A stretch of 64,000 bases of DNA from Candidatus Fermentibacterota bacterium (lineage in GTDB: Bacteria > Fermentibacterota > Fermentibacteria > Fermentibacterales > Fermentibacteraceae). Both the position numbers and the translations under genes were made by a program. The first letter of the stretch is position 1; each line of letters begins with the position of its first letter. Below the pieces are notes generated by a model. That model did no database searches, had not been told where the DNA came from, and worked only from the letters and a program-made list of their open reading frames with translations. This document shows, one piece after another, positions 25,795 through 52,493 of the stretch. The stretch spans positions 1,547,566 through 1,611,565 of the forward strand of contig OY970370.1 in assembly GCA_963718745.1 (NCBI GenBank), read 5' to 3'.

Positions 25795-27285
25795 GTGTTG
25801 GCGCTCCTTTTACTTGCAGCGACCGCGAGTCCACCCGAGATCCTGTGGGCTGCCTGGTCCCCTGGCGGGATAGTTGATGTAGAGTGCGCCGGCTTCGTGA
25901 ATGGCGACTCCACCGAAGATGTCTTTGCCGCGTCAGATGAAGCCTCCGGGCATGGCATCATGTGCCTGGACGGGGCTACAGGTGGAATCATCTGGCTCAA
26001 CGACTCTCTTCCGGGAATCACTGGCACGGGTTGCCTCCGAGCTATCAGAGACGTGAATCTTGACGGAGTTCATGATGTTGCGGCAGGTTCATCGGCGAAT
26101 CCTGCGGTGGCTGTCTTCTCTGGAAGCACAGGTGAGATTCTGTGGAGCATTCCCCAGGAGTATCCGGTCTGTTGGATCGAGGCCGCCAATGGTCCTGGTC
26201 CCTCGGACGTCTACGTTCTTGTTAACCGACAGAACTCATACTGGACCAGTTGTGCCGCGCTTGTCGGTCAAACTGGAGCGCAGCAGTGGGCCACGCCTTA
26301 CGTGGCAACCACAGATCTCTGGCTAAGAGCGACTGAAGGTGACATCAACGGTACAGGCTGGTCCGAGTTCGGTATATCGGTTGACAGGGGATCTGTCAGC
26401 GGCGGATGGGCCGACGTGATGGACGGTTCGAATGGCGGCCTGATCCATCGAGAAAACACGATGTATTTCGGATCCATGGACGTATGCGACACGCCCATGC
26501 CGTTGATGGTCATGTCTCACTTCGGAACCTACCCCGTGACATGGGCGTACTCCTTTGTCTCGGGCACTGTAGTATGGCAGAGTTACAACCCGGATCTGGG
26601 TGGCGCCCAGCTCCAGATTCTCCCGAGCATCACCCAGCCTGCCACCCCGGATCGTGAGATCCTCGGATTCGGAAGCAGCAGCCACCTGGTCCTGTTCAGT
26701 TGTGATGAGGAATACACTGACGTTTTTGTTGAATACGTCTTTCCGAGCGCGATCAGGGCGGTTGACTATTTCTGTGAGGCTGCAACGTGGAGGGTTGCCT
26801 TGGTGACCTCGGCCAGATTCCATTGCCCCCTGCTGGACCTTTGGTCCCCACCTTCCACAGAGCCTTCAATCGCCTTGCCTAACGCGGATGCACAGGATCT
26901 TTGCCTGATCGAGTCGGTTCTCTCTCCGACACCACTCGTAGCTGTCGCAATGAAAGCAGCCGGACCAGGTGTCTGCGCGATTCGCACCACATGGCCCGAA
27001 GGCATCGAGGAGGAAAGCACAGCCCCCAATCTGGTCTTGAGCTCCTGTTCGCCTAGTCCTGGGACGGGGGAGTTCAGTCTCACCTGGTCATCCGGCATGG
27101 GGCCGACGGAGATCGGAGTCTATGAGGAATCCGGCAGACTCTGCCTCGATTGCGACCTGGGTCTGATGCCCGAAGGCGAACACTCCACACAGCTCGACCT
27201 GCAGGAAATGCCCTCCGGCTGCTATGTGGTCGTAGTCTCCTGTGGCACAGAGCGGGCCTCCACGAAGCTGGTTGTGCTCAGGTAG
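25795..27285 (+). CDS. secreted repeat protein with T9SS-like C-terminal domain
   Basis: GTG start with GGAGGTGG RBS; signal MLALLLLAATASPP; C-terminus GVYEESGRLCLDCDLG...PSGCYVVVVSCGTERASTKLVVLR. Confidence 0.7.
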   Translation: MLALLLLAATASPPEILWAAWSPGGIVDVECAGFVNGDSTEDVFAASDEASGHGIMCLDGATGGIIWLNDSLPGITGTGCLRAIRDVNLDGVHDVAAGSSANPAVAVFSGSTGEILWSIPQEYPVCWIEAANGPGPSDVYVLVNRQNSYWTSCAALVGQTGAQQWATPYVATTDLWLRATEGDINGTGWSEFGISVDRGSVSGGWADVMDGSNGGLIHRENTMYFGSMDVCDTPMPLMVMSHFGTYPVTWAYSFVSGTVVWQSYNPDLGGAQLQILPSITQPATPDREILGFGSSSHLVLFSCDEEYTDVFVEYVFPSAIRAVDYFCEAATWRVALVTSARFHCPLLDLWSPPSTEPSIALPNADAQDLCLIESVLSPTPLVAVAMKAAGPGVCAIRTTWPEGIEEESTAPNLVLSSCSPSPGTGEFSLTWSSGMGPTEIGVYEESGRLCLDCDLGLMPEGEHSTQLDLQEMPSGCYVVVVSCGTERASTKLVVLR

Positions 27286-27375
27286 GAGAGCCTCCGAAGC
27301 TGCTTCCCGATTCCGTGCTGTAGTGCGTCTGGCTGTCTGTATTAGCGCAAAATATTGCTGTATAACTGATTATAT

Positions 27376-27660
27376 GGTGGCGGTCCCACGGGGCAACGCA
27401 GTCCCCCGTGGACCGGTCGCGCGAACGATTCGAGATGGATAGCCGTTGTGAGCGCGACAAGGCATCATCACGTCGTTTCTCTGGGAACGACGATGCTGTG
27501 CTTATCTACTGGTGGTGATGATGCCTTTGCCACTTCCCGCAGGGAAGTGGCGGGCCTGGTCCTTCGTGGATGGAACACCCTGATGGCCCAGCTCATCAAG
27601 ATCGCAGCCTGGAGCGAGGTTTCGTGAGGGGCAGCTCAGGATGGTGTTATCAGCTCCAAT
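27376..27660. repeat. mosaic intergenic repeat, copy B (starts with a duplicate of the tRNA-Glu 3' terminus)
   Basis: TGGCGGTCCCACGGGG (revcomp = the last 16 nt of tRNA-Glu) followed by the CAACGCAGT-loop hairpin and about 250 bp shared with copy A. Confidence 0.65.
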
Positions 27661-27845
27661 TGGCCATCGATCCTCTACAGGATGGAGAAGTAGTAGCCAG
27701 AGGGGATTGGACCACCACGGTATCTTGCCATTGTTGTGTCTGGTCGACTACAGATCGCTGCCGTCAACCAACCGAGCTAGCTGGTTAGGATACTGGAGCT
27801 CCATGCCCCAGTTCTGAAGACCTTCCTAATGGAACAGCCAACCCA

Positions 27846-28931
27846 CTACTGCAGCTCGAAAATGTAGACCCGGGGCCACGAGCTGGCGAAAGGATTCCAG
27901 GCAAGAATCCCGCGATCTGTGATGCGGAAGATCATCAGCTCGTCGCCGGGGAGGCCACTGACAGCGGAGGTGAACTCCAGCGTGCCATCCGACCTATACA
28001 CGTCGAACTCAGGGTGGAAATAGGAACTGTGGTGCACCCAGACCCTTCCCAGGGAATCCTGGACCTGGATCCCGATCACACCCAGCTCCCTTGGATCAGG
28101 GCGCCAGGCCCCGCCCATGTTGTCACGGTACCGGCGCCAGAGGAGTTCCTCCTCTACTTCCAGAGAATCGCGGAAACCTGGTTCCCGGGGATTTTGAAGA
28201 GTATCCAGGGGGGTACCGTCCTGCGCTAAAACTAGGACACGATTGTTGACGCCAGAGAGGGCCACATATATGTGCCCGTCACTATCTGTAGTTACTGCAG
28301 GCTGTCCGGCATAAAGCTCGTAGAGATCCTCGGGATTGATGCTGATCTGCTGAAGTGAGCTAAAGGTAGTGGTTATCTCTCCGGTGTCGATGCTCCACCG
28401 GGACAAGTCCATAGAAAGCGTGAGATCGCCATTCTGATCCGCAGTGAGATTCCCGGCCCAGCCGAGAGCGGAGCTGTCTGGAAGGATACTCAGCTGATCG
28501 ATGACCGAATTTCCGGGGAGTGTGACGGAACGCACCGTTGCCAAATCAGCTCGGTAGTACACAAATCGTCGAAGGTAGTATTCGTATAGGACGAAGCCTT
28601 CGCCGAATGGCGTTATCCCACCGATGTGATTGTATTCCAAAGGGCCATTGCCCAGATTCTTGACCCGGCTGATGCAGAGACCATCCGGAGAAAACAGACG
28701 CAGATCCTGATACGCCCCGTCCGCAACCAGTATGTTTCCGTCCGGTATGAAGAATGCCCCAGCGACTTTGCCCAGTAAAAGGTTGCTATCTCCGATTTCA
28801 ACTCCGATGGAATCGACAACTCGCAGTTCTCTGTATGTGATCGGATCATCGGTTGCTGGTGTGGGTCCTTTGCAGGCGATAGCCATAAGGATCAATGGCC
28901 CGCCTGAAACAAGGAAATATCCACTTCTCAT
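27846..28931 (-). CDS. hypothetical lipoprotein, beta-propeller-like
   Basis: Start MRSGYFLVSGGPLILMAIACKG (lipobox) with GGAGG RBS; repetitive beta-rich sequence. Confidence 0.65.
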   Translation of the reverse strand: MRSGYFLVSGGPLILMAIACKGPTPATDDPITYRELRVVDSIGVEIGDSNLLLGKVAGAFFIPDGNILVADGAYQDLRLFSPDGLCISRVKNLGNGPLEYNHIGGITPFGEGFVLYEYYLRRFVYYRADLATVRSVTLPGNSVIDQLSILPDSSALGWAGNLTADQNGDLTLSMDLSRWSIDTGEITTTFSSLQQISINPEDLYELYAGQPAVTTDSDGHIYVALSGVNNRVLVLAQDGTPLDTLQNPREPGFRDSLEVEEELLWRRYRDNMGGAWRPDPRELGVIGIQVQDSLGRVWVHHSSYFHPEFDVYRSDGTLEFTSAVSGLPGDELMIFRITDRGILAWNPFASSWPRVYIFELQ

Positions 28932-29149
28932 CCCGCTAATCACCTCCAGTCTGCAATATCATCAGTTTCGCAGCTCTGCCTGTCTAGTTACAGGGATCGA
29001 AGTCCAATCCGGGGAAGGTCAGCATTCCGAGCTTCAGAACCCGGGGACCGTTAATGCGATCCTTCAAGACAAGGACGAGCTGCTTGCACGACCAGGCATC
29101 GTCATGGTCGTTTTAGGAAACGACGGCTCTGAGCTTGTAACCAGTTGGT

Positions 29150-29650
29150 GATGATGCCTTTGCCACTTCCCATGGGGAGGACGCTCAGGCCCTCTCGCGG
29201 CTCGTCTCTTCAGTTTCGCAAGGCGAAACTGATACTTAGCAGAACACTCCAGTTCCGCGAAGCGAAAATGGTACGTAGCGCAACAGCATGGTTCCCGAAG
29301 GGAACCTGCGAGTGCGCGTGTCTGTGTTACCAGGGAACCTGCAAGTGTGCGTGAATGTCGTTGAAGGCTTTACCGCTCTCGCAGGTCCGCTTCGCGGACC
29401 GTGCTGCCGCTAAACTCATCCCTCTTCGCGGGATTCGAGACCTGTCGGGCCAGGTCATTCCCGCAGACGCGGGAATGACCGTGGCGGTCCCACGGGGCAA
29501 CGCAGTCCCCCGTGGACCTGCCGTGAGAGCTTCGTGCGAATACTGTGAGCCTGCGAGCACGGCGCAGGGACGACACGGTTGTTGCCGGAGGGAACGACCA
29601 TTCAACCGTTATGTCTTCGAGGTGTCGTCACTGCTGCCACTTGCCGGAGG
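29150..29650. repeat. mosaic hairpin-rich repeat block, copy C, directly downstream of tRNA-Glu
   Basis: Contains a second duplicate of the tRNA-Glu 3' end (~29482..29497), the hairpin GGTCATTCCCGC-AGAC-GCGGGAATGACC, and units shared with copies D and E. Confidence 0.65.
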
Positions 29651-29654
29651 CAAG

Positions 29655-29730
29655 TGGCGGTCCCACGGGGAATCGAACCCCGGTTTGATGGCTGAGAACC
29701 ACCCGTCCTAGACCTCTAGACGATGGGACC
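29655..29730 (-). tRNA. tRNA-Glu (anticodon CUC)
   Basis: Revcomp GGTCCCATCGTCTAGAGGTCTAGGACGGGTGGTTCTCAGCCATCAAACCGGGGTTCGATTCCCCGTGGGACCGCCA; cloverleaf with TTCTCAG anticodon loop; CCA encoded. Confidence 0.9.
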
Positions 29731-29766
29731 GCAGGCGAGGCCGGTACTATCGCCCGCGAGGGGCTT

Positions 29767-31293
29767 TTACGTCAAGACCCCTCGGCGGGTTGCCCTTCCG
29801 CCGGCTCTTCTCTGAAGAGATCGGCGTACTTCTGCTCCGATGTCCGACAGCATTGCCTGGGTCACGGGGCCGAGGGCCTCGATCGCGCGTCGCAGCCGCA
29901 TGCGCACCATGTCGGTACCCAGCAGCGCCATCGAGTCGTACAGCGGGGTGGAGGCCTTCGACCCGCTCACGGCCATGTAGAACGGTTTCGTGAGATCCCG
30001 CAGCTTGATGCCCAGCCTGTCGCTCATGGTCTTGAACATCTCCTCCACGCCTTCGGCAGTGAGACCCTGCATGCGCTCGATCTCCCAGATCGAGTACTGG
30101 AGGATCTCCTGCGACTCCTGCGGCGTCCGGCCCTTCAGGAGCAATGCTTCCGCATCGAGCGGCACGGAGTCCGAGAAGAAGAAGGAGGTGAGATGCCCCC
30201 AGTCGGAGAGGGTCTCGAGACGGGTGTGGGCAACCCGTGCAACCTTCCCGAGGTATTCCTGATTGAGCCCCCAGCTCTGGAGGCGGGCAAGAAGGGTGTC
30301 GGGCGTGAGGTCCTCCCTGATGTACCTTGCATTCAACCACCGCAGCTTGGCAAAGTCGAACACCGGGCCGCCCAGGGTGACGTCCTCGAGCCTGAACTCC
30401 CTCACCATGTCCTCGACTGTGAACTTCTCCTCCCCGCCCGGCATGCCCCAGCCCATCATCCCCAGGTAGTTGAGGAGAGCCTCCGGGAGGAAGCCCGCCT
30501 GCCTGAAATACGTGATGGAGGTGGGGTTCTTCCTCTTCGACAGCTTGCTCTTGTCCGCATTCCGCAGCAGGGGCAGGTGGCAGAAGACGGGCGGCTCCCA
30601 TCCGAACAGGCTGAAGAGGTGGACGTGCTTGGGGACGGAGTTGATCCACTCCTCGCCGCGGATGATGTGGCTGATCTTCATCAGATGGTCGTCCACCACG
30701 ACCGCGAGGTGGTATGTGGGGAATCCGTCGCTCTTCATCAGCACCTGGTCGTCGACCGTGGACCAGGCCTTCCTGATCTCTCCCCGCAGGAGGTCCGTGA
30801 AGACGCAGTCGCCCTCCAGGGGCGCCTTCATCCGTATTACGAAATGCTCGCCAGCCGTGGCCCGCCTGTCGGACTCCTCGCGCGGGATGTCCCTGCAGTG
30901 CCTGTCATAGCCGGAGCCCGCGCCCGTCCGGCGGGAGTCGCGCATGGAGTCCAGGCGCTCCTTCGTGCAGAAGCAGCGGTATGCGGCTTCCTTCGAGAGA
31001 AGGGCTTCGGCGTGCTCCCTGTAGATCGCGAGCCGCTCGCTCTGCCTGTAGGGTCCATACGGTCCGCCGACACCGGGACCCTCGTCCCACTTCAGGCCGA
31101 GCCACTCGAGGGAATCCAGGATGGCCTTTTCCGAATGCCCGGTGGACCGCTCCTGGTCGGTGTCCTCGATCCTCAGGACGAAGCTGCCGCCGTTCCGCTT
31201 CGCCCAGACATAGTCGAACAGAGCCTGGTAGGCGGTTCCGACATGCGGGTCCCCGGTCGGGGAGGGGGCGATCCTGGTCCTGACCTCCGTCAC
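29767..31293 (-). CDS. gltX: glutamyl-tRNA synthetase
   Basis: HIGH-type motif PHVGTAY and KMSKS-type KLSKRK; full-length class I GluRS; start overlaps the glnS stop. Confidence 0.95.
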
Positions 31294-33131: not shown

Positions 33132-33926
33132 CTACTGCTGCGGGATATCGGTGCGCCAGGGCTCGGACAGCCCCCTGTACTGGGCGAACCGCCTGCCGCG
33201 GATGAGGATGGCGTTGACAGGACAGATCGACTGGCAGCGCATGCAGCTTTCGCAGCGGTCGGCGAACTCCGGCAGGGTCGTCATCCTGATGTTGCTCGAG
33301 GGGCAGTGTGCGGCGCAGAGGCCGCAACGGGTGCAGACGGACTGGTCCACCGAGATGGGCAGACCCTTTCTCATCCCCGCGAAAGGCCTGTCGTTCGCCA
33401 TGTATTTCGCGACCAGGTCGGGCAGCCCGGGTATGCGCCGCCAGACAGCCCTGCCCTCGGCAAGGGCGGACGCGAATTCCGAGACACTGCGGAGGGCCTT
33501 CTCCCTCTGAGCCGCGTTCCGCTTCTCGTTCTGCGATGTCAGAAGGAAGTTGGAAGGCATCCTTATGCGTTTCGCTCCGAGCGGCCGGTATCCCTTTGCG
33601 GTGACGAGTTCGCGCATCGGCCCCACGAGGCCCCCGGTGGCTCCGGCCATCGTGACCAGGAGGAACACGCCCTTCCCTCCCCCGGGCCTGAGATTCTTCA
33701 CGAACCGCCACACGAGCGGATAAGTGGTGAAGGCCGCCGCAGGGCAGGCTATGCCTATCGAGCCGGACGAATAGAGCGTTGCAGGATCGGTGTCCTCTAT
33801 CGCCCTGAGGTTGGTCTCGATCCCGCGGATCGAGAAATCCGCGGCCATGCGCCCCGCAGCGAGTGCCGTGTTCCCCGTGCCGGAGAAGAAGCAGAGATCG
33901 ATCGGACCCTCGGGTATCATTTCCAC
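33132..33926 (-). CDS. EFR1-like ferredoxin (flavodoxin-like domain plus two 4Fe-4S motifs)
   Basis: N-terminal CFFSGTGNT; C-terminal CTRCGLCAAHCP and CESCMRCQSICP. Confidence 0.6.
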   Translation of the reverse strand: MEMIPEGPIDLCFFSGTGNTALAAGRMAADFSIRGIETNLRAIEDTDPATLYSSGSIGIACPAAAFTTYPLVWRFVKNLRPGGGKGVFLLVTMAGATGGLVGPMRELVTAKGYRPLGAKRIRMPSNFLLTSQNEKRNAAQREKALRSVSEFASALAEGRAVWRRIPGLPDLVAKYMANDRPFAGMRKGLPISVDQSVCTRCGLCAAHCPSSNIRMTTLPEFADRCESCMRCQSICPVNAILIRGRRFAQYRGLSEPWRTDIPQQ

Positions 33927-35129: not shown

Positions 35130-35924
35130 TCAGCCTTGCCGCCCGGCCCGGGGTTCTGCGCCCGACCTGCCGAGGAACCGGAGCAGGGCGTCCAGGATCG
35201 TCAGGGGATGCGGAGGGCAGCCGGGGATGAAGAGGTCTACCGGCAGAAGCGAGCCGATCCCTCCACAGGTCTTCGGGTTGTCGGAGTAGAGCCCGCCCGA
35301 AATCGCGCAGGTTCCGGTCGCGATGACGATCTTCGGGTCCGGGACGGCCTCGTATGTCGCAAGCAGGGCATCCTTCATGTTCGTCGTGACCGGCCCGGTG
35401 ACCAGGAGTCCGTCCGCATGGCGCGGCGAGGCGACGAACTGGATCCCGAACCTCCCGAGATCCCAGCCCACCGTTCCCAGGACGTTGGAATCGGCCTCGC
35501 AGGCATTGCAGCCGCCCGCGCTGACCTGCCGGAGCTTGAGCGACCGCCCGAAGAGCGATGCGGCTGACTCCGCAAAGACCGGCGGCGGTTCCGCGCCTCC
35601 GCCCGCCTTCACGACCAGGTCACCGCGGGTCCTGGCTGCCAGGCGGTAGTCTTCCGTGAATCTGATCGAGCACGCGGGGCAGACCCTCGCGCACTCCCCG
35701 CAGAAGATGCAGCGGCCCGTGTCCAGCGTGATCTCGCCCGACGGCCCGTTCCCGATGGCGCCGGTGGGGCATCCCGCTATGCATGCCATGCAGCCTTCCG
35801 GGCATTTCGAGGCTTCTATCTGGGGACGGCCCGCGAAGCGCGCAGGCAGCGCAGGAGGCGGTCCGTCCGGGTACCGGATCGTCCTGAACTTCTGGCGGGC
35901 TCTCGCCATGAGGATCCTCAGCAT
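35130..35924 (-). CDS. fused 2x[4Fe-4S] ferredoxin (HycF/NuoI-like) and hydrogenase small subunit (HycG/EchC/NuoB-like)
   Basis: N-terminal CPEGCMACIAGCP and CIFCGECARVCP; C-terminal GGCNACE, RFGIQFVASPRHAD, PDPKIVIATGTC, IPGCPPHP. Confidence 0.8.
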   Translation of the reverse strand: MLRILMARARQKFRTIRYPDGPPPALPARFAGRPQIEASKCPEGCMACIAGCPTGAIGNGPSGEITLDTGRCIFCGECARVCPACSIRFTEDYRLAARTRGDLVVKAGGGAEPPPVFAESAASLFGRSLKLRQVSAGGCNACEADSNVLGTVGWDLGRFGIQFVASPRHADGLLVTGPVTTNMKDALLATYEAVPDPKIVIATGTCAISGGLYSDNPKTCGGIGSLLPVDLFIPGCPPHPLTILDALLRFLGRSGAEPRAGRQG

Positions 35925-35936
35925 CGGTGGGACCCC

Positions 35937-37409
35937 CTAGAGGTCATGTCCGCAGTAGGACAGGTTGAAGCTCTTGTTGCACAGGGGGAAGTCCGAGATC
36001 TGCTGCCCGCGGAGCGCGCAGGCCAGCCCGAACCAGTTCCGGAACGAGGGATCCACGACCTTGCAGCGGCTGAAACCCCCGCGGTCGTCCGTGATCAGGA
36101 CATGGCAGATCTCTCCGCGCCAGCCCTCCGCCAGGGAGACCGCCATCCCGTTCCGCGGCAGCGCGCCCGTATCGACATGGACCGGGCCGTCCGGGAGGCT
36201 TCCGAGCTGTTCCAGGATGAATGCGGCCGATCTCTGTACCTCCATCCACCGGACGAGGGCGCGGGCGAAGACGTCACCCGAATCCCAGACCGAGAGCGGG
36301 ATGTGGGACATCCGGTAGATGCCCGAAGGGAAGTCACGGCGCACGTCCTTCTCGAGCCCGCTGGCCCTGGCGGCCGGTCCGGAAAGGCCGATGGACGCCG
36401 CGAGGCCGGCGGGAACGGTCCCGGTGCCCTCGAACCGCGACAGGACGGAAGGGGTCTCCCACAGCAGGCCCACGGCCCCCTCTGCGTCCCGGAGCGCCGT
36501 CCTGAGCCTGTCCGAGAGGTCCCGCGCCGTCTCCCCGTCGATGTCCCGGGCCAGGCCTCCCGGCCGGAGCAGCCCCCGGCCGAACCTGTTGCCGCACATG
36601 CCCGCCGTTATGTTGAGGACATCCCCCCTGATCCTCCCGCAGTACGACATGGTGGGGAGGAAACCGACGTCGCCCGCCATCGCGCCCAGGTCGCCTACGT
36701 GGTTGGCCATCCTCTCCAGCTCGAGCGCCACGCCCCGGAGGACCTGCGCCCTCGCAGGGACGTCCGTTCCGCACAGAGCCTCGAATGCCGAGCAGTACGC
36801 GGTCGCATGGCCGATGGAGGTGTCTCCCGCGATCGTCTCGACGATGCGGAGCCTCCGGTAGTCCGGCCTGCCCTTCAGCGCCTCCTCGACTCCCCTGTGC
36901 TGGTATCCGAGGGCGATCTCGAGGTGATAAACCGTCTCGCCGTGGCACAGGAACCTGAAGTGGCCGGGCTCGATCACGCCCGCGTGCACGGGGCCGACGG
37001 CGACTTCGTGGATCTCCGCGCCCCTTATCCTGAAGAAGTTGTTCGTCTCCGCAGAAGGCGGGCCGGGGGGGTACCTGACCGGTTTCAACCACGGGTGCCC
37101 CCTGAACTCGATCCCGTACCCCTCGGCGGCCTCGCGCTCGAACATCTGCGCCTGCGGGCAGTCGGGCACCAGCGAGTCCATCCCGCCCGAGGGGCGGGTG
37201 GAGAATACCGAGATCTGGCCGGTGCCAGGCTTCGACATCACCGCGTACATCGTCAGGCTGTCCTGGAGCCGGCATGCGAAGAGCGCGGAAATGGCCGCCC
37301 CGCCCTGCACCGAATCCAGAACGCCCTGCCTGAACTCCGCCCTTGTGAGGAGGGGGATCTCGGCGAGCGGCACGGGTCCTCCGCCCTGGAACAGCGCTGT
37401 GCGTGTCAC
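35937..37409 (-). CDS. NuoC/NuoD-fusion large subunit (HycE-like) lacking NiFe-ligating CxxC motifs
   Basis: C-terminal 490 aa of ORF 35937..38888; GTG start overlaps the stop of the upstream gene; NuoC-like (YAVMS...ISVFSTR...FEREAAEGYGIEFRGHP) then NuoD-like domain; the L1 position reads TIAGDTSIGH and the C-terminus is NLSYCGHDL. Confidence 0.8.
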   Translation of the reverse strand: MTRTALFQGGGPVPLAEIPLLTRAEFRQGVLDSVQGGAAISALFACRLQDSLTMYAVMSKPGTGQISVFSTRPSGGMDSLVPDCPQAQMFEREAAEGYGIEFRGHPWLKPVRYPPGPPSAETNNFFRIRGAEIHEVAVGPVHAGVIEPGHFRFLCHGETVYHLEIALGYQHRGVEEALKGRPDYRRLRIVETIAGDTSIGHATAYCSAFEALCGTDVPARAQVLRGVALELERMANHVGDLGAMAGDVGFLPTMSYCGRIRGDVLNITAGMCGNRFGRGLLRPGGLARDIDGETARDLSDRLRTALRDAEGAVGLLWETPSVLSRFEGTGTVPAGLAASIGLSGPAARASGLEKDVRRDFPSGIYRMSHIPLSVWDSGDVFARALVRWMEVQRSAAFILEQLGSLPDGPVHVDTGALPRNGMAVSLAEGWRGEICHVLITDDRGGFSRCKVVDPSFRNWFGLACALRGQQISDFPLCNKSFNLSYCGHDL

Positions 37410-38888
37410 GGCAGCACCTCGATCACGGACGCGGCGGAGGCCAGGGCTTCCCTGAGGAATGGCGGCATCCATATCCCGAGGACGAGCAGGACTATCATGG
37501 GCACTGCGACTAGCAGCAGGTCGGGTAGCGTCGTGACGGCCTTCAGTGCGGGCCGTTCGGGCGGCATCCATGCCATCGGGATGGCGTGCCGGAGGATCCC
37601 GATGAAGGCGATCGAGACGCCGGCGAGGAAGAGGATCGCCACGAACACGGCGCCCGAGTCGAATGCCGTGCGGAGGATCATGAACTCGGTGAGGAAGATC
37701 GCGAACGGGGCTGTCCCCGTCAGGGCGAGGAGCGAAGCCAGCAGGCCCGCGCCCCACACCGGGGCGGACGAGAGGGTGCCGCGGATCCTGCGCATGTCGT
37801 TGGACCCGCTGATCGCGATGAGCCTCCCGGCTGACAGGAATGCGGTGCTCTTGGCAAGGGAGTGGGACAGGGCGTGCAACATCGCCGCGAGGGCTCCCGC
37901 TCCACCGAGACCGGCGCCGAGCGCGATTATCCCGATGTGCTCGAGGCTGGAGTACGCGAGCAGCCGCTTCAGATCCCTCTGCACCACGATGAAGGCCGCC
38001 GCTGTGAGTATCGAGGCGAGACCCGCCGCGATCAGGATGCTCCTGCCCCAGCCATGGCCGCCTGTCGCCGCCTCCACTATCGGGAGGCAGCGGAAGATGC
38101 AGTACAGGGCTGCGTTCAGGAGGAAGCCCGAGAACACGGCCGAAACGGGGGCGGGCGCCTGGCTGTGCGCGTCGGGCAGCCAGTTGTGCATCGGCGCGAG
38201 CCCCGCTTTCGTCCCGTAGCCCACGACCATGAAGATGAAACCCGCCTTGAGGAGGGTGACGTCCAGGCCGGATGCTGATGCGGCCAGGCTCGTCCAGAGA
38301 AGGGACTCGGTCCCGCGAAGCGAAGTAGGACCCGCCGAAGCCGCGAAGAGGAGGGTGCCTGTGAAGGCCAGGGCGACACCCACGGAGCACATCAGCAGAT
38401 ACTTCCACATGGCCTCGAGGGAGCCCGGCGTGGTGTGAACGCATATCAGGAAAGCGCTCAGGAGCGTCGTCGCCTCTATCCCGACCCACATCACCCCGAG
38501 GTTGTTGGACAGGAGAACGACGAGCATCGCGAAGAGCGAGCCGAACCAGAGCCCCCCGAATCGGCGGGCGGACCGGATGTCGAAAGAGCCGGCGGCGAGT
38601 CTCGTTCTCGAAGTAGCCGGGGGCCTGCAGCGCAGCGAGCGTGAATACGACGCCCATTATCAGGAGATGGAAGGCCGAGAGTGCGTCCAGCCTCAGCCAG
38701 CCGCCCGGTACCGTGACCGGGCCGCCTCCCAGCACAACGAATGCCGCCGCGCCCATGAGGATGCACGTGAAGACCGTGCCCAGGGCGCACAGGCGGAGCG
38801 CCGACCGGGGCGTGCCGGAGAACAGGCTCGCCGCGGCAAGCAGCACGGGAAGGGCCAGCATCGCGGTGATCATCAGGGTCGCCGTCAT
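37406..38888 (-). CDS. HyfF/NuoN-like antiporter-type membrane subunit, frame-disrupted near 38560-38600
   Basis: N-terminal ~96 aa in the frame of ORF 35937..38888 and the remaining 373 aa in ORF 37406..38527; both parts are NuoL/M/N-family TM sequence. Confidence 0.7.
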
Positions 38889-38891
38889 GCG

Positions 38892-39536
38892 TCAGCCCCT
38901 CAGCCTGGAGAGGCGGTCGGAGTCTATGTGGTCGAACTCCGAGTTGATCCTGTAGATGGCTATGCCCATCACGAACACGGCCACGAACATGTCCATCAGG
39001 ACGCCGATCTCCACGAGGAAGGGGACGTCCCTGACGAGTGCCAGGCTGAACGCGTAGATGCCGTTCTCGAGGACCAGGTAGCCCAGGACCTGGTTGACTG
39101 CGGTCCGCCTTGCGACAAGCAGGAAGAGCCCCGTGGACATGAGCGTGAACGAGACTGGGACCATCATGGCGGCGGATGACTGCCGGGGCAGGTCCAGCCT
39201 CCCGTCCAGCCAGAAGGAGGCGGAGAGGGCCAGGACGCCTATCAGGAGAGACGGCACGTACCCGACGAAAGGCTTGACCTCGCGGCTGGTCGCGGACTCC
39301 CTCAGGGCCTTCCTCAGCAGGTTCGGGAACACGAAGCCCTTGAGGGCGAAAACGGCAAGGCCGAGAACCGCTATCCTTATCGAAAGGCCGTCCTCCGCGG
39401 TCACGACGGGCAGCAGGCCGACCAGCATCCCCTGCCAGGCTGCGGTCCTTATGCAGTTCCCGAGCCTGCTCGAGCCGAGCAGCACGAAGTTGGAGAGCAT
39501 GAGGCCCACGAGCACGAGGTCCATCCAGGCCGTCAC
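38892..39536 (-). CDS. HyfE-like small membrane subunit
   Basis: 214-aa polytopic membrane protein in operon position and size matching hydrogenase-4 component E. Confidence 0.7.
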   Translation of the reverse strand: MTAWMDLVLVGLMLSNFVLLGSSRLGNCIRTAAWQGMLVGLLPVVTAEDGLSIRIAVLGLAVFALKGFVFPNLLRKALRESATSREVKPFVGYVPSLLIGVLALSASFWLDGRLDLPRQSSAAMMVPVSFTLMSTGLFLLVARRTAVNQVLGYLVLENGIYAFSLALVRDVPFLVEIGVLMDMFVAVFVMGIAIYRINSEFDHIDSDRLSRLRG

Positions 39537-40453
39537 GGTATGAACCTCGATGCCAGGATGAAGGCGAGTACCGACAGCGCGCCCGCCGCCGCGAGGAGCT
39601 GGGGTGCCCTGGTCAGGCTCAGCCTAGCCATCACTGATTCGGCGACGCCGACGAGAACCCCTGTCAGGAGCATGACACCCAGGAAGGCGGCGAGGTATGG
39701 ATATCCCCCGAGCCCGAAGGGGGAGAGGAGCAGGCCTGCGAACAGGGAGCCGAAGAGCCAGAGCTTGAGCGAGGCGCCGTATGTCACCAGGGCGAAGTCC
39801 GGGCCTGAGCTGTCGAGGACCATCACCTCGTGGACCATCGTCAGTTCAAGGTGGGTGTCGGGGTCGTCGAAGGGGATCCTCGAGTTCTCGGCGAGCAGGA
39901 TTATGAAGAACGACACCGCCACCAGCGCGGGAGCGGTTTCCGCGGAGATCCAGCCTGCGCTCCCCAGGCCCGCGAACATGCCCGGGAGGGAAGCGGAGCC
40001 CGAAATCCTCGACAGCGCCGCGAGACCGGTCAGCAGGGCCGGTTCCGCCAGGGCCGAATAGAGTACCTCCCGGCTCGCGCCCATCCCCTCGAAGCTGGAG
40101 CCGCAGTCCAGTGCCGCTGCGACAGTGAAGAACCTTGACAGACCGAGGATGTACGCGAAGAAGATCATGTCTCCCGCGAATCCCCAGCCGGGCTGGTTCC
40201 CGGCGGGCGCAAGGATCACGAGCGAGGCGAGGACGCATGCTATCGAAAGAGACGGGGCGAGCTTGAAGATCCATGTCGATGTGGAACTGAAGACGGCGCC
40301 CTTCCGCAGCAGCTTGGAGATGTCGCGGTACTGCTGGAGGAGGGGCGCGCCCCTCCTTCCGGCGAAGACGGCCTTGGTCCTGTTCACGACCCCTGCGAGC
40401 AGGGGGGCCAGCAGGAGCCCCGCGAAGACGAACAGCAGACCCTCGGTGCTCAT
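39533..40453 (-). CDS. HyfC/HycD/NuoH-like membrane subunit
   Basis: 306-aa polytopic protein with NuoH-like conserved acidic/aromatic loops; 4-nt overlap with the next gene. Confidence 0.8.
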   Translation of the reverse strand: MSTEGLLFVFAGLLLAPLLAGVVNRTKAVFAGRRGAPLLQQYRDISKLLRKGAVFSSTSTWIFKLAPSLSIACVLASLVILAPAGNQPGWGFAGDMIFFAYILGLSRFFTVAAALDCGSSFEGMGASREVLYSALAEPALLTGLAALSRISGSASLPGMFAGLGSAGWISAETAPALVAVSFFIILLAENSRIPFDDPDTHLELTMVHEVMVLDSSGPDFALVTYGASLKLWLFGSLFAGLLLSPFGLGGYPYLAAFLGVMLLTGVLVGVAESVMARLSLTRAPQLLAAAGALSVLAFILASRFIP

Positions 40454-40466
40454 CGCCGCGCCCCCG

Positions 40467-42455
40467 TCAGAGCTTCCACGCCAGCAGTGCGAAGAGCGCC
40501 GCGACGATGTAGAGGATGTAGAGGTTCACCCTGCCGTGCTGTATCACCCTGAATCGGGAGAAGACGCGCTCCAGGGCGGAGAAGACGGGTCTGTACAGCC
40601 CGTCCTGATAGACATCCGGCGTCTCGGTGGAGAAGGAGGATTCCGCCGGGAACAGGCCGTCCGGTTCCACGAAGCTCCTGCGCCTCCGGAGGATTCCTCC
40701 GAAGAGGCGGACGATCGGCTCGGCGAATGACGACGCAGTGTACTGCATCGACGGGGCGGGCGACCGGAATCCGCAGCCCCAGGTGGGCGCGACGGCAGTT
40801 GTGCGCCTCCTGAGGATTGCCGTCCTCGCCCAGTAGATCGCCGCCGATGCCAGTATCAGGGCGCCCGAGAAGAGTGCGGCCGCCGTCAGGGCATCTCCGG
40901 GCTGCCCCGCCGGTCCGGCGGCGCTGCCGAAGCCCGTGACGAGCCCGGACACGACGGGGCGCAGGAAACCCGCCATGAAGCGGCCCGAGAGGCCGAGCAG
41001 CAGGCAGAGAGAAGCGAGGACCGTCATCGGGAGCCGCATCGAAAGAGGGGTTTCCCCGGCTCTCGACGCGCAGGCGCTGCGCGGCTCCCCGAGGAAGACT
41101 ATGCCGAAGGCCTTCGTGAAGCAGGCCAGGGCGAGGCCGCCCGTCAGGGCCAGGCCGCCCGCGGCCAGCAGGCCGGCCGTGGCACCTGCATGCGAGGAGG
41201 CTGCCGCCTGTGTGATGCCGGAGAATGCGGACAGGTAGACGAGCAGCTCGCTCGCGAATCCGTTGAAGGGCGGCAGCCCGCAGATCGCTATGCTGCCCGC
41301 GAGGAAGCAGATGCCCGTGACCGGCATCGTCCTGAGAAGGCCTCCGAGGTGGTCCAGCTCGCGGGTGCCGGTCTGCTTCAGCACCGCTCCGGCCCCCATG
41401 AACAGGAGGCTCTTGAACAGGGCGTGGTTTATGACGTGGAAGAGGCCTCCCGCGAAGCCGAGGAAGGCCATTGCAGGTATGTCGTAGCTGATCCCGAGGA
41501 AGCCTAGCCCGAGGCCCATCCCGATGATCCCGATGTTCTCCACGCTGTGGTAGGCGAGAAGGCGCTTGAGATCGTGCTGTGCGATGGCCGAGAGCACGCC
41601 GACCAGCGCCGAGACCATGCCGGACAGCAGGAGCACCCATCCCCACCAGGGAGGCGGGGGGCCCAGGAACAGGAGGAAGCGGAGGAGCCCGTATATCCCT
41701 GTCTTGATCATCACGCCGCTCATCACCGCGGACACTCCCGAGGGGGCCGAGGGATGCGCCTCGGGGAGCCAGACATGGAGGGGGACGAATCCCGCCTTGG
41801 TGCCGAAGCCTGCGAAGGCCAGCACGAACGCGACTCCTGCGGGACCCCCCGCCGGCAGGGCGAGCCTAGAGAAATCCAGCGAACCGCCACGGCCCAGGAT
41901 GGCGAACAGAGCAAGCAGGCAGGCTGTGCCGAGGTGTGTGGCTACGAGGTAGATCCAGCCGGATCTCCGGACATCGCCCTCGACGGCGTCGTGCATGACC
42001 AGGAAGAAAGACGCGATGGCCATGACCTCCCAGCCGAGGAGGAACAGGAGCGCGTTCCTGGAGACGGTGACGAGCAGCATCCCGAAGGCGAGCAGGTTGA
42101 AGAATCCCCAGTAACCGGCCCGGTGCCTGCCCGTCCCCGCCGGGCGCCCGAGGTATCCGATGCTGTAGACGGCCGCAAGGGACGAGACCAGCAGGATGGG
42201 GATCGTGAACAGGGCGGACAGAGGATCCATGCCCAGGACCAGCCCGCCCGACGGCATGTCCCAGGGGATGACCGAGGATTCTACCGGGCCATCGAAGAAT
42301 GCGAGGATGGCGGCGGCGATGCCCGGGAGGCTGCCTGCCACGGCCGCGATCGGACCTGCCGTCCTCGAGGCTCCGAACCTGTCGGGGATGGCGAAGGAGA
42401 CCAGAGCCCCGGCCAGGAATGTGCAGAGTGACGCGACTAGCAGTCCGATGATCAT
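40467..42455 (-). CDS. HyfB/HycC/NuoL-like antiporter-type membrane subunit
   Basis: 662 aa; conserved NuoL-family segments (LGWEVMAIASFFLV, FGTKAGFVPLHVWLPEAHPSAPS, HALFKSLLFMGAGAV). Confidence 0.85.
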   Translation of the reverse strand: MIIGLLVASLCTFLAGALVSFAIPDRFGASRTAGPIAAVAGSLPGIAAAILAFFDGPVESSVIPWDMPSGGLVLGMDPLSALFTIPILLVSSLAAVYSIGYLGRPAGTGRHRAGYWGFFNLLAFGMLLVTVSRNALLFLLGWEVMAIASFFLVMHDAVEGDVRRSGWIYLVATHLGTACLLALFAILGRGGSLDFSRLALPAGGPAGVAFVLAFAGFGTKAGFVPLHVWLPEAHPSAPSGVSAVMSGVMIKTGIYGLLRFLLFLGPPPPWWGWVLLLSGMVSALVGVLSAIAQHDLKRLLAYHSVENIGIIGMGLGLGFLGISYDIPAMAFLGFAGGLFHVINHALFKSLLFMGAGAVLKQTGTRELDHLGGLLRTMPVTGICFLAGSIAICGLPPFNGFASELLVYLSAFSGITQAAASSHAGATAGLLAAGGLALTGGLALACFTKAFGIVFLGEPRSACASRAGETPLSMRLPMTVLASLCLLLGLSGRFMAGFLRPVVSGLVTGFGSAAGPAGQPGDALTAAALFSGALILASAAIYWARTAILRRRTTAVAPTWGCGFRSPAPSMQYTASSFAEPIVRLFGGILRRRRSFVEPDGLFPAESSFSTETPDVYQDGLYRPVFSALERVFSRFRVIQHGRVNLYILYIVAALFALLAWKL

Positions 42456-42463
42456 CGCTGGCT

Positions 42464-43165
42464 CTACCGGCGCTTGTCCTGCGCCCGCGAGAGGAGCATG
42501 CCGTCGACCAGGGCGGCCTGCTCGAGGATCTCCGGTTCGGGGCAGCGCCTGGAGACCGATTCGATGAACGGAGGCTGTCTGAGTGCGAAGGCCAGCCTGG
42601 AGAGGAGGTCGAGATGCGAGTTGACCGTCGGGCTTATCATCATGAAGAGGGTGTCGACAGGCCTGCCGTCGAGGGCTCCGAACTCTATCCCGCGCTCCAG
42701 GAAGGAGAGCGTGATGATCGGCCGGGGTATGTCCAGGACGATCGGATTGCGCACGTGGGGGATGGCTATCCCGTCCCCGATGCCCGTCGAGGCGAGGGCT
42801 TCACGGGCTTCGAGGATCTGCAGGAGGTACTTCCTGTCCGCGCTTTCCGGAACGGGCATCAGGGCTAGCGTCGCTTCGAGGACCGAGTGGCGGTCGCCGC
42901 CGGTTACGCCGTACCGGATTCCTCCGGCCTGGAGGGCGTCCCGGAGACCCCACGCCCCGGCCGGGTCATCCGATCCAGCCCCGGAGAAGAGCCCGGAGGC
43001 GAGGGGGATCTGCCTGCGCGTGGCCCACTCCAGAAGCTCGGTGCGGTTGAAGCGGTACTGCCCGCCCACCTTGACCGCGGGCAGGGCATCCTCGCGTATC
43101 CAGCGGAGGAGGGTCTTCTCCGGCACCCCCATGATCCCCGCGGCCTCTCTCATCCCAAGCTGCAT
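42464..43165 (-). CDS. MerR/excisionase-type HTH fused to PTS EIIA(Ntr)-like domain, putative regulator
   Basis: Start MQLGMREAAGIMGVPEKTLLRWIRE (HTH); C-terminal EIIA-2-like region with GIAIPH; ends 8 nt before the first gene of the hyf-like operon. Confidence 0.65.
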   Translation of the reverse strand: MQLGMREAAGIMGVPEKTLLRWIREDALPAVKVGGQYRFNRTELLEWATRRQIPLASGLFSGAGSDDPAGAWGLRDALQAGGIRYGVTGGDRHSVLEATLALMPVPESADRKYLLQILEAREALASTGIGDGIAIPHVRNPIVLDIPRPIITLSFLERGIEFGALDGRPVDTLFMMISPTVNSHLDLLSRLAFALRQPPFIESVSRRCPEPEILEQAALVDGMLLSRAQDKRR

Positions 43166-43167
43166 GG

Positions 43168-43196
43168 CACCAGTTCCTGGTTTAAAATAGCTTGAA
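43168..43196. promoter_or_regulatory. conserved 29-bp intergenic motif (copy 2)
   Basis: Differs at three positions from 2602..2630; abuts the start codon of the MerR-EIIA gene. Confidence 0.35.
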
Positions 43197-43379: not shown

Positions 43380-43860
43380 TGGTTCAAAAAGGAAGGACGC
43401 TCGGGCCCTCTCGCGGTTCGCCACTCCAGTTCCGCGAGGCGGAACTGGTAGGTAGCACGACAGCATGGTTCCCGGAGGGAACCTGCGAAAGTGCGTGCAA
43501 GTCGTTATAGAGGTCGCTCGGAGCCCTCTCGCGGCTCGCCTCTTCCGGCTGATGCTCTGTGAGCTGGCGAGCCACTGACGGGCCAGGTCGTTCCTGCGCT
43601 TGCAGGAACGACCGATGCGAGTGTGCGTGCATGTGTTATAGAGGTTCGCTCGGGCCCTTTCGCGGCTCGCCTCTCCGGAATGTTCTTGATCTGGCGAGCC
43701 ACTGACGGGCCATGTCATTCCCGCGGACGCGGAGTTGATGGAAGCCCTGCGGGCTCGTTTGAGGAAGATCGCCCGGGTCCTCTCGTTATCCGCCAGACGT
43801 CTTGAACAACGGATGGCGGATAACTGTCGGACCTGGTCATTCCTGCCCGTGCAGGAATGA
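43380..43860. repeat. mosaic hairpin-rich repeat block, copy E, directly downstream of tRNA-Ser
   Basis: Tandem ~130-bp units sharing blocks with copy C; perfect hairpin GGTCATTCCTGC-CCGT-GCAGGAATGACC abutting the tRNA-Ser 3' end, plus variants with compensatory stem changes. Confidence 0.65.
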
Positions 43861-43863: not shown

Positions 43864-43956
43864 TGGCGGAGAGGGAGGGATTCGAACCCTCGGATAGGTG
43901 ATAAGCCCATCAACCGCTTAGCAGGCGGTTGCCTTCAGCCTCTCGGCCACCTCTCC
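43864..43956 (-). tRNA. tRNA-Ser (anticodon GCU)
   Basis: Revcomp GGAGAGGTGGCCGAGAGGCTGAAGGCAACCGCCTGCTAAGCGGTT...GAGGGTTCGAATCCCTCCCTCTCCGCCA with long variable arm; CCA encoded. Confidence 0.9.
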
Positions 43957-44103: not shown

Positions 44104-45417
44104 ATGCCGAGGATCGACAGGCTTGTGATCGGGATATTCGGGAGGATCAACGCCGGCAAGAGCACGCTCATGAATCTCCTCACCCAGCAGGAGACCTCGA
44201 TAGTTGATCCGACCCCCGGGACGACGGCGGATATCAAGACCGCCGTAATGGAGATCCACTCGCTCGGTCCCGCGCGGCTGCTCGACACCGCGGGCCTCGA
44301 CGAGAAGGGGGAGCTCGGCGACAAGAAGCGCCGGAAGGGTTTCGCCGCGCTCGAGGAATGCGACGTCGCCCTGCTCGTGATCGATCCGATCCAGACCTTC
44401 CTGTCCAATACCCTCGATGTGGAGGAGACCATCGGCAATGCCGCACGGAGGCACGGAAGGGCTCTCGCCGTCGTCTTCAACATCAGGCGGGGATCGGAGC
44501 GGGCGGCGGAGGATGCCGGGACGAGCCTGGGTGATGCGATCGAGTTCTGCCGGACCGCGCTGCCCGACAGGGCGGCCGTTCCGTCCTGTACCACCGACCT
44601 GGCCGACCCGTCGGCGCTCTCCGGGATAGTGAGCCTTATCGAGCGGGCGCGCCCGGCTGCCGACGCGCACCCGCCTCTCCTGCCTTTCATCAGGCCGCGC
44701 GGAGCGGTGCTCCTTCACATCCCCATGGACGAGGAGACCCCGTCGGGCAGGCTCCTGCGGCCCCAGGAGATGGCGATGGAGCACCTCCTGAGGATGATGG
44801 TCCCCGTGGGTCTCTACCGGACCGACCTCAGGCTGGGGCGGAGTTCCACCGAGTCGCTGGCTGCCGCCGAGAGGCGGAAGTTCGAGGCCTTTCTCGGATC
44901 CCTCGGTGGAGACCAGGGAGTCCAGCTCGTCCTCACCGACTCCCAGGCGGTCGACCTGATGAAGGACTGGGTCCCCCGGGACATCCCCCTGACCACCTTC
45001 TCGATAATGATGATCAACCAGACCGCAGGCGGGGATCTGGCGCTCTTCGCGAAGGGCACGGAGGCGCTGGGGCGGCTCGTGCCGGGCGACCGGGTGCTGA
45101 TCGTGGAGGCCTGCAACCACGACCGGATGGCCGAGGACATCGGCACGGTCCAGATCCCGGCAAAGCTCCAGGCTGCAGTTCCAGGCCTGGAGATCGACCA
45201 CGCATTCGGGCGGGAGTTCCCTGATCCGGCCGGTCTGTCACGCTACAGCGTTGCCGTGCATTGCGGAGGCTGTATGATTAGCCGTCAGGCCGCCTCCGCC
45301 AGGGTCAGGAGGCTCGTCGAGGCGGGCGTGCCCGTCACCAACTACGGCCTGGCCCTGTCCTGGTTCGAGGGTCCTGAAGTCCTCGCCAGAGTCCTTGCGC
45401 CCTGGACCGAAAGGTAG
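44104..45417 (+). CDS. hydF: [FeFe]-hydrogenase maturation GTPase HydF
   Basis: G1 motif GRINAGKST and G3 DTAG; HydF-specific C-terminus (LTTFSI, EACNHDRMAEDIGTVQIP, VHCGGCMISR, TNYG). Confidence 0.8.
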   Translation: MPRIDRLVIGIFGRINAGKSTLMNLLTQQETSIVDPTPGTTADIKTAVMEIHSLGPARLLDTAGLDEKGELGDKKRRKGFAALEECDVALLVIDPIQTFLSNTLDVEETIGNAARRHGRALAVVFNIRRGSERAAEDAGTSLGDAIEFCRTALPDRAAVPSCTTDLADPSALSGIVSLIERARPAADAHPPLLPFIRPRGAVLLHIPMDEETPSGRLLRPQEMAMEHLLRMMVPVGLYRTDLRLGRSSTESLAAAERRKFEAFLGSLGGDQGVQLVLTDSQAVDLMKDWVPRDIPLTTFSIMMINQTAGGDLALFAKGTEALGRLVPGDRVLIVEACNHDRMAEDIGTVQIPAKLQAAVPGLEIDHAFGREFPDPAGLSRYSVAVHCGGCMISRQAASARVRRLVEAGVPVTNYGLALSWFEGPEVLARVLAPWTER

Positions 45418-52492: not shown

Positions 52493-52493
52493 A

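Follow-up and report, generated by a model that had tools for sequence, protein, structure and literature searches.

Complexes of the energy-converting hydrogenase-related (Ehr) type were first described in Geobacter in 2005 (Coppi 2005 as cited in PMC7894505, PMC3569383 and PMC13194489). The complex of Geobacter sulfurreducens is encoded by seven genes, ehrA-1, ehrA-2, ehrB, ehrC, ehrD, ehrL and ehrS, at GSU0739-0745 (PMC7894505, PMC13194489). [quoted passage not shown] These complexes do not carry the residues that bind the NiFe centre of hydrogenases (PMC10284858, PMC3569383 and PMC6349859). They have been named in Margulisbacteria, Saganbacteria and Melainabacteria (PMC6349859) and in comammox Nitrospira (PMC10284858). 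In this report, we analyze an operon of this kind in 64,000 nucleotides of contig OY970370.1 (assembly GCA_963718745.1) from a Candidatus Fermentibacterota bacterium. This whole stretch is called the window, and all coordinates are positions within it.

The operon (35130-43165) consists of seven co-directional genes, all on the minus strand: a gene for a protein with a helix-turn-helix (HTH) domain and a phosphotransferase system (PTS) enzyme IIA (EIIA) domain, followed by EhrA, EhrB, EhrC, EhrD, EhrL and EhrS. [quoted passage not shown] Judged by its sequences, the complex belongs to the established Ehr family and is therefore known in kind. An initial annotation of this DNA had already suggested an Ehr-type complex. 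Because motifs, gene order and subunit set are the same as those of named Ehr complexes, that suggestion is supported. The evidence comes from the replacement of the NiFe-binding cysteines, from 120 close homologues, from Geobacter loci and from the published subunit set.

The large subunit, EhrL, carries most of this evidence. When EhrL was compared with all PDB sequences by using phmmer, the best match was HycE of E. coli formate hydrogenlyase (7z0s_E, E = 2e-45), followed by Nqo4 (9e-39), MbhL (5e-37) and MbsL (2e-23). In HMMER alignments, the L1 sites of HycE (RVCGICGFAH) and MbhL (RMCGICSFSH) pair with TIAGDTSIGH in EhrL, and the L2 site of HycE (DPCYSCTDR) pairs with NLSYCGHDL. The positions of the NiFe ligands are thus A194, T197, S484 and G487, so that four of four are occupied by residues other than cysteine, in frame. 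Relative to the group 4 L1 motif R.CG.C...H, both cysteines are replaced and only the histidine is kept. Relative to the L2 motif DPC..C..H/R, serine and glycine stand at the ligand positions, and C486, the sole cysteine in this C-terminal motif, is displaced by one position. The column-by-column comparison of this 490-residue subunit thus found neither L1 nor L2 intact, and the alignment to HycE and MbhL bears out the earlier observation that CxxC pairs are absent from both canonical sites.

The surroundings of these sites remain of the hydrogenase type and include a proton-relay loop of that type. EhrL keeps the GP.HAG.IEPGHFRF loop with its glutamate, the L1 histidine and the terminal aspartate, and its loop GPVHAGVIEPGHFRF matches GPLHVTSDEPGHFRL in HycE. 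The C-terminus of EhrL aligns with the arginine after which HycE is cleaved, that is, with the end of mature HycE; EhrL therefore has no C-terminal maturation peptide. An AlphaFold monomer model of EhrL (predicted template modelling score, pTM, 0.82) retrieved HycE (7z0s_E) as the top Foldseek match (E = 3e-24, TM 0.78), followed by E. coli NuoCD. The model was used for this fold-level search alone, and we draw no geometric conclusions on the pocket from it.

EhrL has thousands of close relatives. All 8000 of 8000 scored candidates pass E <= 1e-5, the best 120 share approximately 57-100% identity with EhrL, and a library of representatives at 50% identity yields 936 clusters at E <= 1e-30. The nearest named relative is a protein of Candidatus Fermentibacter sp. 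(74% identity). CxxC pairs occur in none of 120 close homologues (0/120), and the replacements are conserved in 120 homologues at 58-74% identity. Instead, the majority pattern among these proteins is that of the window: E147, C155, A194, D196, T197, H201, C206, C477, S484, C486, G487 and H488. Three segments, GP.HAG.IEPGHFRFQCHGE, ET.AGDT..GH and SDFPLCNKSFNLSYCGHDL, are almost invariant among them.

A broader sample gives a similar picture. Among the 150 best cluster representatives, nearly all of the full-length members are without ligand cysteines, and these define a signature of the wider cysteine-less family, E..xGD(S/T) and FP.xNKSFNLSY.G.DL. Only three of these full-length members (P0274, P0284 and P0292; 37-41% identity) possess full CG.C and C.SC motifs. 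A crude neighbour-joining tree places these three inside a different cysteine-less subfamily, far from the clade of the window's protein. On this sequence comparison, EhrL is not nested in bona fide Hyf/Hyc hydrogenases, which is as much as the crude tree supports. The position of the three cysteine-bearing proteins hints at repeated loss of the NiFe site within this radiation, or else at poor resolution of the tree. A four-cysteine EhrL has been reported for Desulfotomaculum ruminis (PMC3569383).

These observations bear on whether the operon could encode a genuine [NiFe] hydrogenase of the Hyf/Hyc type whose cysteine motifs were missed through a wrong frame or a sequencing error. The gene set resembles hydrogenases 3 and 4, which also include the closest solved relative. 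However, both motif regions are in frame and have conserved flanks, none of the four ligand positions is a cysteine, and the same residues recur in 120/120 close homologues and in Geobacter orthologues. Moreover, the cysteine-bearing relatives belong to another subfamily, and the absence of a maturation peptide points the same way. The alignments refute a genuine hydrogenase, a reading to which we give almost no credence.

A scan of a single genome for each GTDB species revealed relatives of EhrL in at least 584 species. The best 80 of these at least 584 include Planctomycetota, Verrucomicrobiota, Lentisphaerae, Hydrogenedentota, Omnitrophota, Elusimicrobia, Holophagae, Spirochaetia, Anaeromyxobacter and others, together with several genomes of Geobacter, Geobacteraceae, Geomesophilobacter and Desulfuromonadales at 51-55% EhrL identity. 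The gene order EhrA(-EhrA2)-EhrB-EhrC-EhrD-EhrL-EhrS is found in essentially all of the best 80 loci. Geobacter-type Ehr shares the subunit set and gene order of the window, with 53-55% EhrL identity to loci of the genus Geobacter, and the EhrL proteins of Geobacter, Geobacteraceae and Desulfuromonadales carry the window's motifs, GIIEPGHFRFQCHGE, ETIAGDTTIGH and DFPLCNKSFNLSYCG.DL. Operons of the Geobacter type have a second EhrA (EhrA-1 and EhrA-2), whereas the window has a single copy, as do most loci of Planctomycetota and Verrucomicrobiota. The window's complex further differs from named Ehr complexes in a frameshift in EhrD, discussed later, and in its host, which is related to Candidatus Fermentibacter.

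Sequence constraint extends to the whole operon. For all seven genes, the ratio of nonsynonymous to synonymous substitution rates (dN/dS) relative to Candidatus Fermentibacter orthologues is approximately 0.15-0.29, which indicates strong purifying selection on the family. Taken together with this low dN/dS, replacement motifs that are almost invariant across phyla argue against the view of Ehr as a functionless relic, which PMC13194489 states for Geobacter. In one Verrucomicrobia metagenome-assembled genome (MAG; JACRJZ010000060.1, approximately 200-12235), two Ehr-like clusters lie in tandem. The first belongs to the window's subfamily (FQCNGE / AGDT / LCNKSFNLSYCGFDL) and the second to another cysteine-less subfamily (FSVAGE / SGDS / VVNKSFNLSYSGTDR). 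The two subfamilies therefore coexist, and they are probably non-redundant.

Gene content was assigned by Pfam, NCBIfam and PDB sequence (phmmer) searches. These confirm the HyfB-, HyfC-, HyfE- and HyfF-like subunits and the NuoC/NuoD and HycF-HycG fusions listed in the initial annotation, whose coordinates, listed genes and quoted peptides proved accurate throughout. EhrL (35937-37409, 490 aa) is a NuoC-NuoD fusion that matches Complex1_49kDa (9.5e-38) and Complex1_30kDa (5e-7), and its GTG start overlaps the TGA of the upstream gene. The fusion small subunit EhrS (35130-35924, 264 aa) matches Oxidored_q6 (1e-26) and Fer4 families. In EhrS, residues of approximately 11-106 form a HycF/NuoI/MbhN-like domain (HycF 2e-13, MbhN 6e-12) whose eight cysteines could hold two [4Fe-4S] clusters, and residues of approximately 123-252 form a HycG/MbhJ/NuoB-like domain (MbhJ 3e-32, HycG 5e-29, MbsJ 2e-21 in PDB phmmer searches). 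The four cysteines that hold the proximal [4Fe-4S] cluster of MbhJ and HycG have their aligned counterparts in the strings GGCNACE, TGTCAISGG and PGCPPHP, in agreement with the earlier statement that the small subunit keeps hydrogenase-type cysteine features. Three [4Fe-4S] sites in a chain are therefore predicted in EhrS. The fusion of ferredoxin-like and small-subunit domains had been regarded as unusual, but it is typical of the family, because 77/81 EhrS orthologues combine NuoI and NuoB in this way and contig ends truncate the remaining four.

The expected membrane arm of Ehr comprises one NuoH-like and one HyfE-like subunit along with two (or three) antiporter-like subunits of the Mrp/NuoL type. 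All are encoded here, the frameshift in EhrD aside. EhrA (40467-42455, 662 aa) is a HyfB/NuoL-like, antiporter-type subunit (Proton_antipo_M 2e-49, plus Proton_antipo_N) that scores 596 bits against the NCBIfam model of hydrogenase 4 subunit B, under its cut-off of 667. Direct reading locates the transmembrane helix (TM) 5 glutamate in GWEVM, the TM7 lysine in GTKAG and the TM12 lysine in HALFKS. EhrB (39533-40453, 306 aa) is HyfC/HycD/NuoH-like (NADHdh 9e-27) and contains the acidic loop RIPFDDPDTHLELTMVHE. EhrC (38892-39536, 214 aa) is HyfE-like with a NuoK-like C-terminal half (Oxidored_q2 4.6e-6), and it aligns over its full length, under the cut-off, with the hydrogenase 4 membrane subunit model NF008556 (1.6e-21). 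EhrD (37406-38888) is an antiporter-type subunit resembling HyfF, NuoN and MrpD (Proton_antipo_M 2.6e-45 for the downstream frame). Its best PDB matches are MBS subunit H (4e-26) and MrpD (1e-23), to which the TM5 glutamate, TM7 lysine and TM12 lysine align.

Comparison with better-understood relatives helps to evaluate what the complex might reduce. Complex I (NDH-1) has Q- and P-modules homologous to Ehr, an N2-type cluster site, and the same antiporter-like glutamate and lysine residues. Unlike complex I, the Ehr operon encodes no NuoEFG input module and has fewer membrane subunits, and all NCBIfam Nuo models score under their cut-offs for its proteins. Ehr might nonetheless be a minimal, complex-I-like ferredoxin:quinone oxidoreductase that reduces menaquinone at the EhrL/EhrS/EhrB interface. 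The best NCBIfam matches of EhrL are NuoD models, and NuoCD chains come next to HycE structurally. Many host lineages, such as Geobacter, Anaeromyxobacter and Planctomycetota, respire with menaquinone. The invariant Tyr485, His201 and Asp196 are conceivable ligands for the head group of a quinone, although this is speculation. However, all NuoD scores are far under their cut-offs (192 versus 360 bits for the best), and the quinone ligands His38 and Tyr87 of Thermus thermophilus Nqo4 correspond to Ile146 and Gly195 in an ungapped HMMER alignment. The beta1-beta2 loop of EhrL (EPGHFRF) is of the hydrogenase type, like that of HycE. Members of the family are also found in lineages described as purely fermentative or as lacking quinone biosynthesis, such as Hyd24-12/Fermentibacter (PMC5030696) and Riflemargulisbacteria (PMC6349859). 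Because the quinone ligands of complex I are not conserved and such hosts exist, quinone is unlikely as the general acceptor, and we consider a ferredoxin:quinone oxidoreductase improbable.

The Mbh (PDB 6CFW) and MBS/Mbx (PDB 6U8Y) complexes of Pyrococcus furiosus, which are ferredoxin-dependent and ion-translocating, resemble Ehr in combining NuoB-, NuoD-, NuoH- and NuoI-like modules with MrpD-like subunits. They differ from the Ehr described here, in which there are two antiporter-like subunits, the NuoC-like domain is fused to the large subunit, and the NuoI-like domain is fused to the small subunit. MBS sets the precedent of a relative without NiFe that acts on a different substrate. By analogy, Ehr could reduce sulfane sulfur, polysulfide or another small oxidized sulfur compound or disulfide at or near the proximal cluster, possibly by way of C155, C477 and C486. 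The similarity of EhrL to MbsL and of EhrS to MbsJ is detectable, EhrD has MBS subunit H as its best PDB match, the three cysteines are invariant or nearly so in the window's subfamily, and sulfur has been proposed as an electron acceptor of Hyd24-12 (PMC5030696). On the other hand, HycE (2e-45) is a far better match of EhrL than MbsL (2e-23) is, and for EhrS, MbsJ (2e-21) is likewise a weaker match than MbhJ (3e-32). Ehr operons encode only two or three antiporter-like subunits, and the host range consists mostly of lineages not known for sulfur respiration. In the wider cysteine-less family, moreover, the three cysteines are often V, I or S. We accordingly regard sulfur reduction as rather unlikely. 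The C155/C477/C486 triad was also considered as a new metal or disulfide site. Since the triad is invariant only in this subfamily and its positions vary semi-independently elsewhere, this idea was set aside except as a minor hypothesis.

E. coli formate hydrogenlyase (FHL) and hydrogenases 3 and 4 (PDB 7Z0S) provide the closest solved relative of EhrL. The NuoC-NuoD fusion is common to both, the beta1-beta2 loop EPGHFR is shared, and the membrane subunits are homologous. Unlike FHL, the Ehr complex has no NiFe-binding CxxC pairs and no maturation peptide, and its HycF- and HycG-like parts are fused. The locus also differs from FHL and Hyf in that a HycB or FdhF partner and a third, HyfD-like antiporter subunit are missing and hyc or hyp maturation genes do not occur nearby; no hyp gene was found in the annotated parts of the window. 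These relationships raise the question of whether Ehr is the membrane module of a formate-dependent complex with formate dehydrogenase (FDH), analogous to FHL. Consistent with such a role, G. sulfurreducens contains more of the Ehr subunits when grown on formate (PMC7894505), and an FDH-Ehr complex has been proposed for Riflemargulisbacteria and Saganbacteria (PMC6349859). However, among the 80 loci, no conserved neighbour was found besides the HTH-EIIA gene: not FDH, a HycB-like protein, NuoEF or hyp genes, and the largest cluster of neighbours, histidine kinases, is present in nine loci. Beside the window's operon, FDH, HycB-like and NuoEF-like genes are likewise absent, and its neighbours are instead MnmA, an EFR1-family ferredoxin, tRNA-Ser and HydF. 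A formate-dependent complex is therefore very doubtful.

We return to the ferredoxin-oxidizing Ehr complex as the preferred reading. Mbh and Ech use ferredoxin through the homologous MbhN/EchF module. Because the 80 loci share no conserved neighbour other than the HTH-EIIA gene, the electron donor is likely to be a soluble carrier such as ferredoxin. In the proposed mechanism, reduced ferredoxin, for example from the pyruvate:ferredoxin oxidoreductase of this fermentative lineage, would donate electrons to the HycF/NuoI-like domain of EhrS. From there, the electrons would reach the proximal cluster, where they would reduce an acceptor other than protons in a proton-fed pocket at the EhrL/EhrS/EhrB interface. 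Candidate residues of this pocket are the invariant E147, D196, H201, Y485 and D489, which lie in segments homologous to the surroundings of the NiFe site. As in Mbh, FHL and complex I, the reaction is presumed to drive the translocation (export) of H+ or Na+ by way of EhrB, EhrC and both antiporter-like subunits.

Several points weigh against this interpretation. The donor, the acceptor and the transported ion are inferred from homology and analogy with Mbh, Ech, FHL and complex I. The comparison with Geobacter involved other genomes of Geobacter and Geobacteraceae, rather than the EhrL of G. sulfurreducens PCA itself. The predicted local distance difference test (pLDDT) of the EhrL model is below 50 in residues 113-168 and 471-490, which are the segments that form the pocket. 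A 2026 report treats the Geobacter Ehr as non-functional, although it presents no test (PMC13194489). Finally, the frameshift in EhrD means that the copy sequenced here may be inactive.

The EhrD gene is split between two frames, with codons 1-96 at 38888-38601 and the remaining 397 codons at 38599-37409. Alignment of the DNA with two Candidatus Fermentibacter orthologues (L001, from a MAG, and L002) reveals a single extra base at approximately 38598-38603 that causes a shift to the +1 frame: the window reads GAGACTCGCC, versus GGCA-TCGCC in both orthologues. When base 38600 is dropped, the result is a 493-aa EhrD that is 71% identical to the intact 494-aa protein of L001. A plot of GC content at third codon positions (GC3) also indicates that the coding frame changes at approximately 38600, and the upstream frame has no stop there. 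The shift was missed in the initial annotation. The listed downstream open reading frame (ORF) begins only at the internal ATG at 38527. Because the upstream EhrD frame is by chance open and coincides with the EhrL frame, the ORF list also contains a 983-aa ORF (35937-38888, minus strand). This ORF is an artefact: over 397 codons of GC-rich sequence, the shifted frame meets no stop codon and runs on into EhrL.

The site of the insertion lies neither in a homopolymer nor at a slippery motif, which makes programmed frameshifting unlikely. Programmed +1 frameshifting was rejected at the extra base itself (GAG-A-CUC), where there is no slippery or stop codon, and the nearby CUC-UUU-CGA was rejected as a shift site since its product would match the orthologues less well. 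Past the shift, EhrD is as conserved as the other genes (pN/pS of 0.30 versus 0.23-0.42). For this reason, the insertion is either a mistake in the assembly or a mutation that arose very recently, and the Ehr complex of this genome is complete only if it is an assembly error.

If the insertion is real, then no EhrD is made, the complex is not assembled, and the operon of this genome has been freshly inactivated. Such an event would concern this copy only and is compatible with membership in the Ehr family. It would account for a frameshift after codon 96 that is present relative to two orthologues and lies outside homopolymers, where sequencing errors are commonest. GC3 plots of 47.1-55.5 kb and 57.3-60.4 kb, the other stretches checked, revealed no comparable frame break, so that the assembly does not seem rich in indels. 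Opposed to this are the pN/pS value past the shift, the 71% overall amino acid identity and the intactness of the six other genes, although synonymous divergence is near saturation, so that the selection test gives no date for the shift. We therefore treat inactivation of this copy as a real possibility, but the less probable one.

The operon's first gene encodes the HTH-EIIA protein (42464-43165, 233 aa), with HTH_17 (7e-13) at its N-terminus and PTS_EIIA_2 (2e-20) at its C-terminus. NCBIfam models for PtsN (1e-15) and the IIA domain of fruA (2e-17) match under their cut-offs. This gene had been described as encoding a MerR-HTH/EIIA(Ntr) protein. The EIIA part of that description holds, whereas Pfam assigns the HTH to HTH_17, which is of the excisionase type. 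The stop codon lies 8 nt ahead of the EhrA start, as previously noted.

The initial annotation also considered this gene unusual, but our survey shows instead that it is a conserved part of the family. It is located upstream of Ehr in 42/48 informative loci, that is, those with a full EhrA and at least 1 kb of upstream sequence. More than 5000 homologues exist, and the best 120 listed all have the same two-domain architecture. Four homologues (51-57% identity), picked solely because they are on long contigs, were used for a reverse look-up. In 4/4 cases, the gene is directly upstream of, and co-directional with, a six-gene Ehr operon, with at most a few bases between HTH-EIIA and EhrA or with overlapping stop and start codons. 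Across phyla, the protein shows approximately 45-52% identity, much like the structural subunits. The EIIA phosphorylation motif G.GiAiPHvrnP is kept in at least 90% of 45 orthologues, and the window's copy carries the histidine of GIAIPH. Through this gene, expression of Ehr, or possibly its activity, is probably tied to the phosphorylation state of the PTS. The connection between HTH-EIIA and Ehr did not turn up in the literature searched, a limited library that does not prove novelty: a search for EIIA in the supplement of PMC6349859 gave zero matches, and GSU0738 is named in none of the papers.

Upstream of the operon is an unusually long non-coding spacer of approximately 700 nt, filled by three tandem units of approximately 122-131 nt (43386-43850, minus strand), which lie between tRNA-Ser and the HTH-EIIA start at 43165. 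The units have the core GGCGAGCCGCGARAGGGCYCGAGCG and short inverted repeats, and a related core occurs at 29182-29206, near tRNA-Glu. An Rfam scan of the window found three tRNAs only and no match for the repeat units. Scans for sigma-70 promoters and terminators around the operon gave results at chance level.

On the far side of tRNA-Ser(GCT) (43864-43956, minus strand) is a HydF-like gene that diverges from the operon (44104-45417, plus strand; TIGR03918 292 bits versus a cut-off of 326). HydF is the maturation GTPase of [FeFe] hydrogenases. The presence of this gene beside Ehr suggests that the real H2 metabolism of the host uses an [FeFe] hydrogenase. Downstream of the operon are MnmA and the EFR1-family ferredoxin (33132-33926, minus strand), which is two genes away, scores 136 bits against NF038196 (cut-off 75) and combines a flavodoxin-like domain with two [4Fe-4S] clusters. 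This ferredoxin is also present in Candidatus Fermentibacter locus L002. MnmA, the EFR1 ferredoxin and HydF are syntenic in Candidatus Fermentibacter loci and not in other phyla.

Two other regions of the window deserve mention. A cluster for synthesis of a Mo/W cofactor (51185-55402, minus strand; MoCF_biosynth, MoaC, MoaA-like radical SAM and MoeA) implies that the genome encodes a molybdo- or tungsto-enzyme at some other place. Positions 24001-30000 have a GC content of 0.57, versus 0.62-0.69 elsewhere in the window, and few ORFs of high GC3. They may represent foreign or otherwise atypical DNA.

A single locus adds little to the question of Ehr function, and the family-wide constraint on motifs and the link to HTH-EIIA are more useful. 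Beyond what the initial annotation provided, the analysis contributes the EhrD frameshift, the tight constraint on the replaced motifs and the near-constancy of HTH-EIIA as first gene. We tentatively raise the further idea that Ehr, instead of being a degenerate hydrogenase, is a distinct, ancient enzyme class. It would be a ferredoxin-driven ion pump whose NiFe pocket was rebuilt around E147, D196, H201, Y485 and D489, plus C155, C477 and C486 in the window's subfamily. HTH-EIIA, as a regulator controlled by phosphorylation or even as a bound partner, would couple it to the state of the PTS, reflecting phosphoenolpyruvate/pyruvate or nitrogen status. We hold this proposal to be possible rather than probable.

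The near-constant HTH-EIIA gene provides an experimental handle on when the Ehr complex is used. The family also has consequences for genome interpretation, because annotation pipelines routinely label Ehr as a hydrogenase or an NADH-quinone oxidoreductase. For example, relatives are found in databases as "Ni,Fe-hydrogenase III large subunit", "hydrogenase" and "NADH-quinone oxidoreductase subunit C". Reconstructions of uncultured anaerobes may therefore wrongly credit these organisms with H2 production. The published model of Candidatus Fermentibacter/Hyd24-12 includes a membrane energy-conserving hydrogenase (PMC5030696), and if that annotation rests on the Ehr cluster, then the model would need revision.

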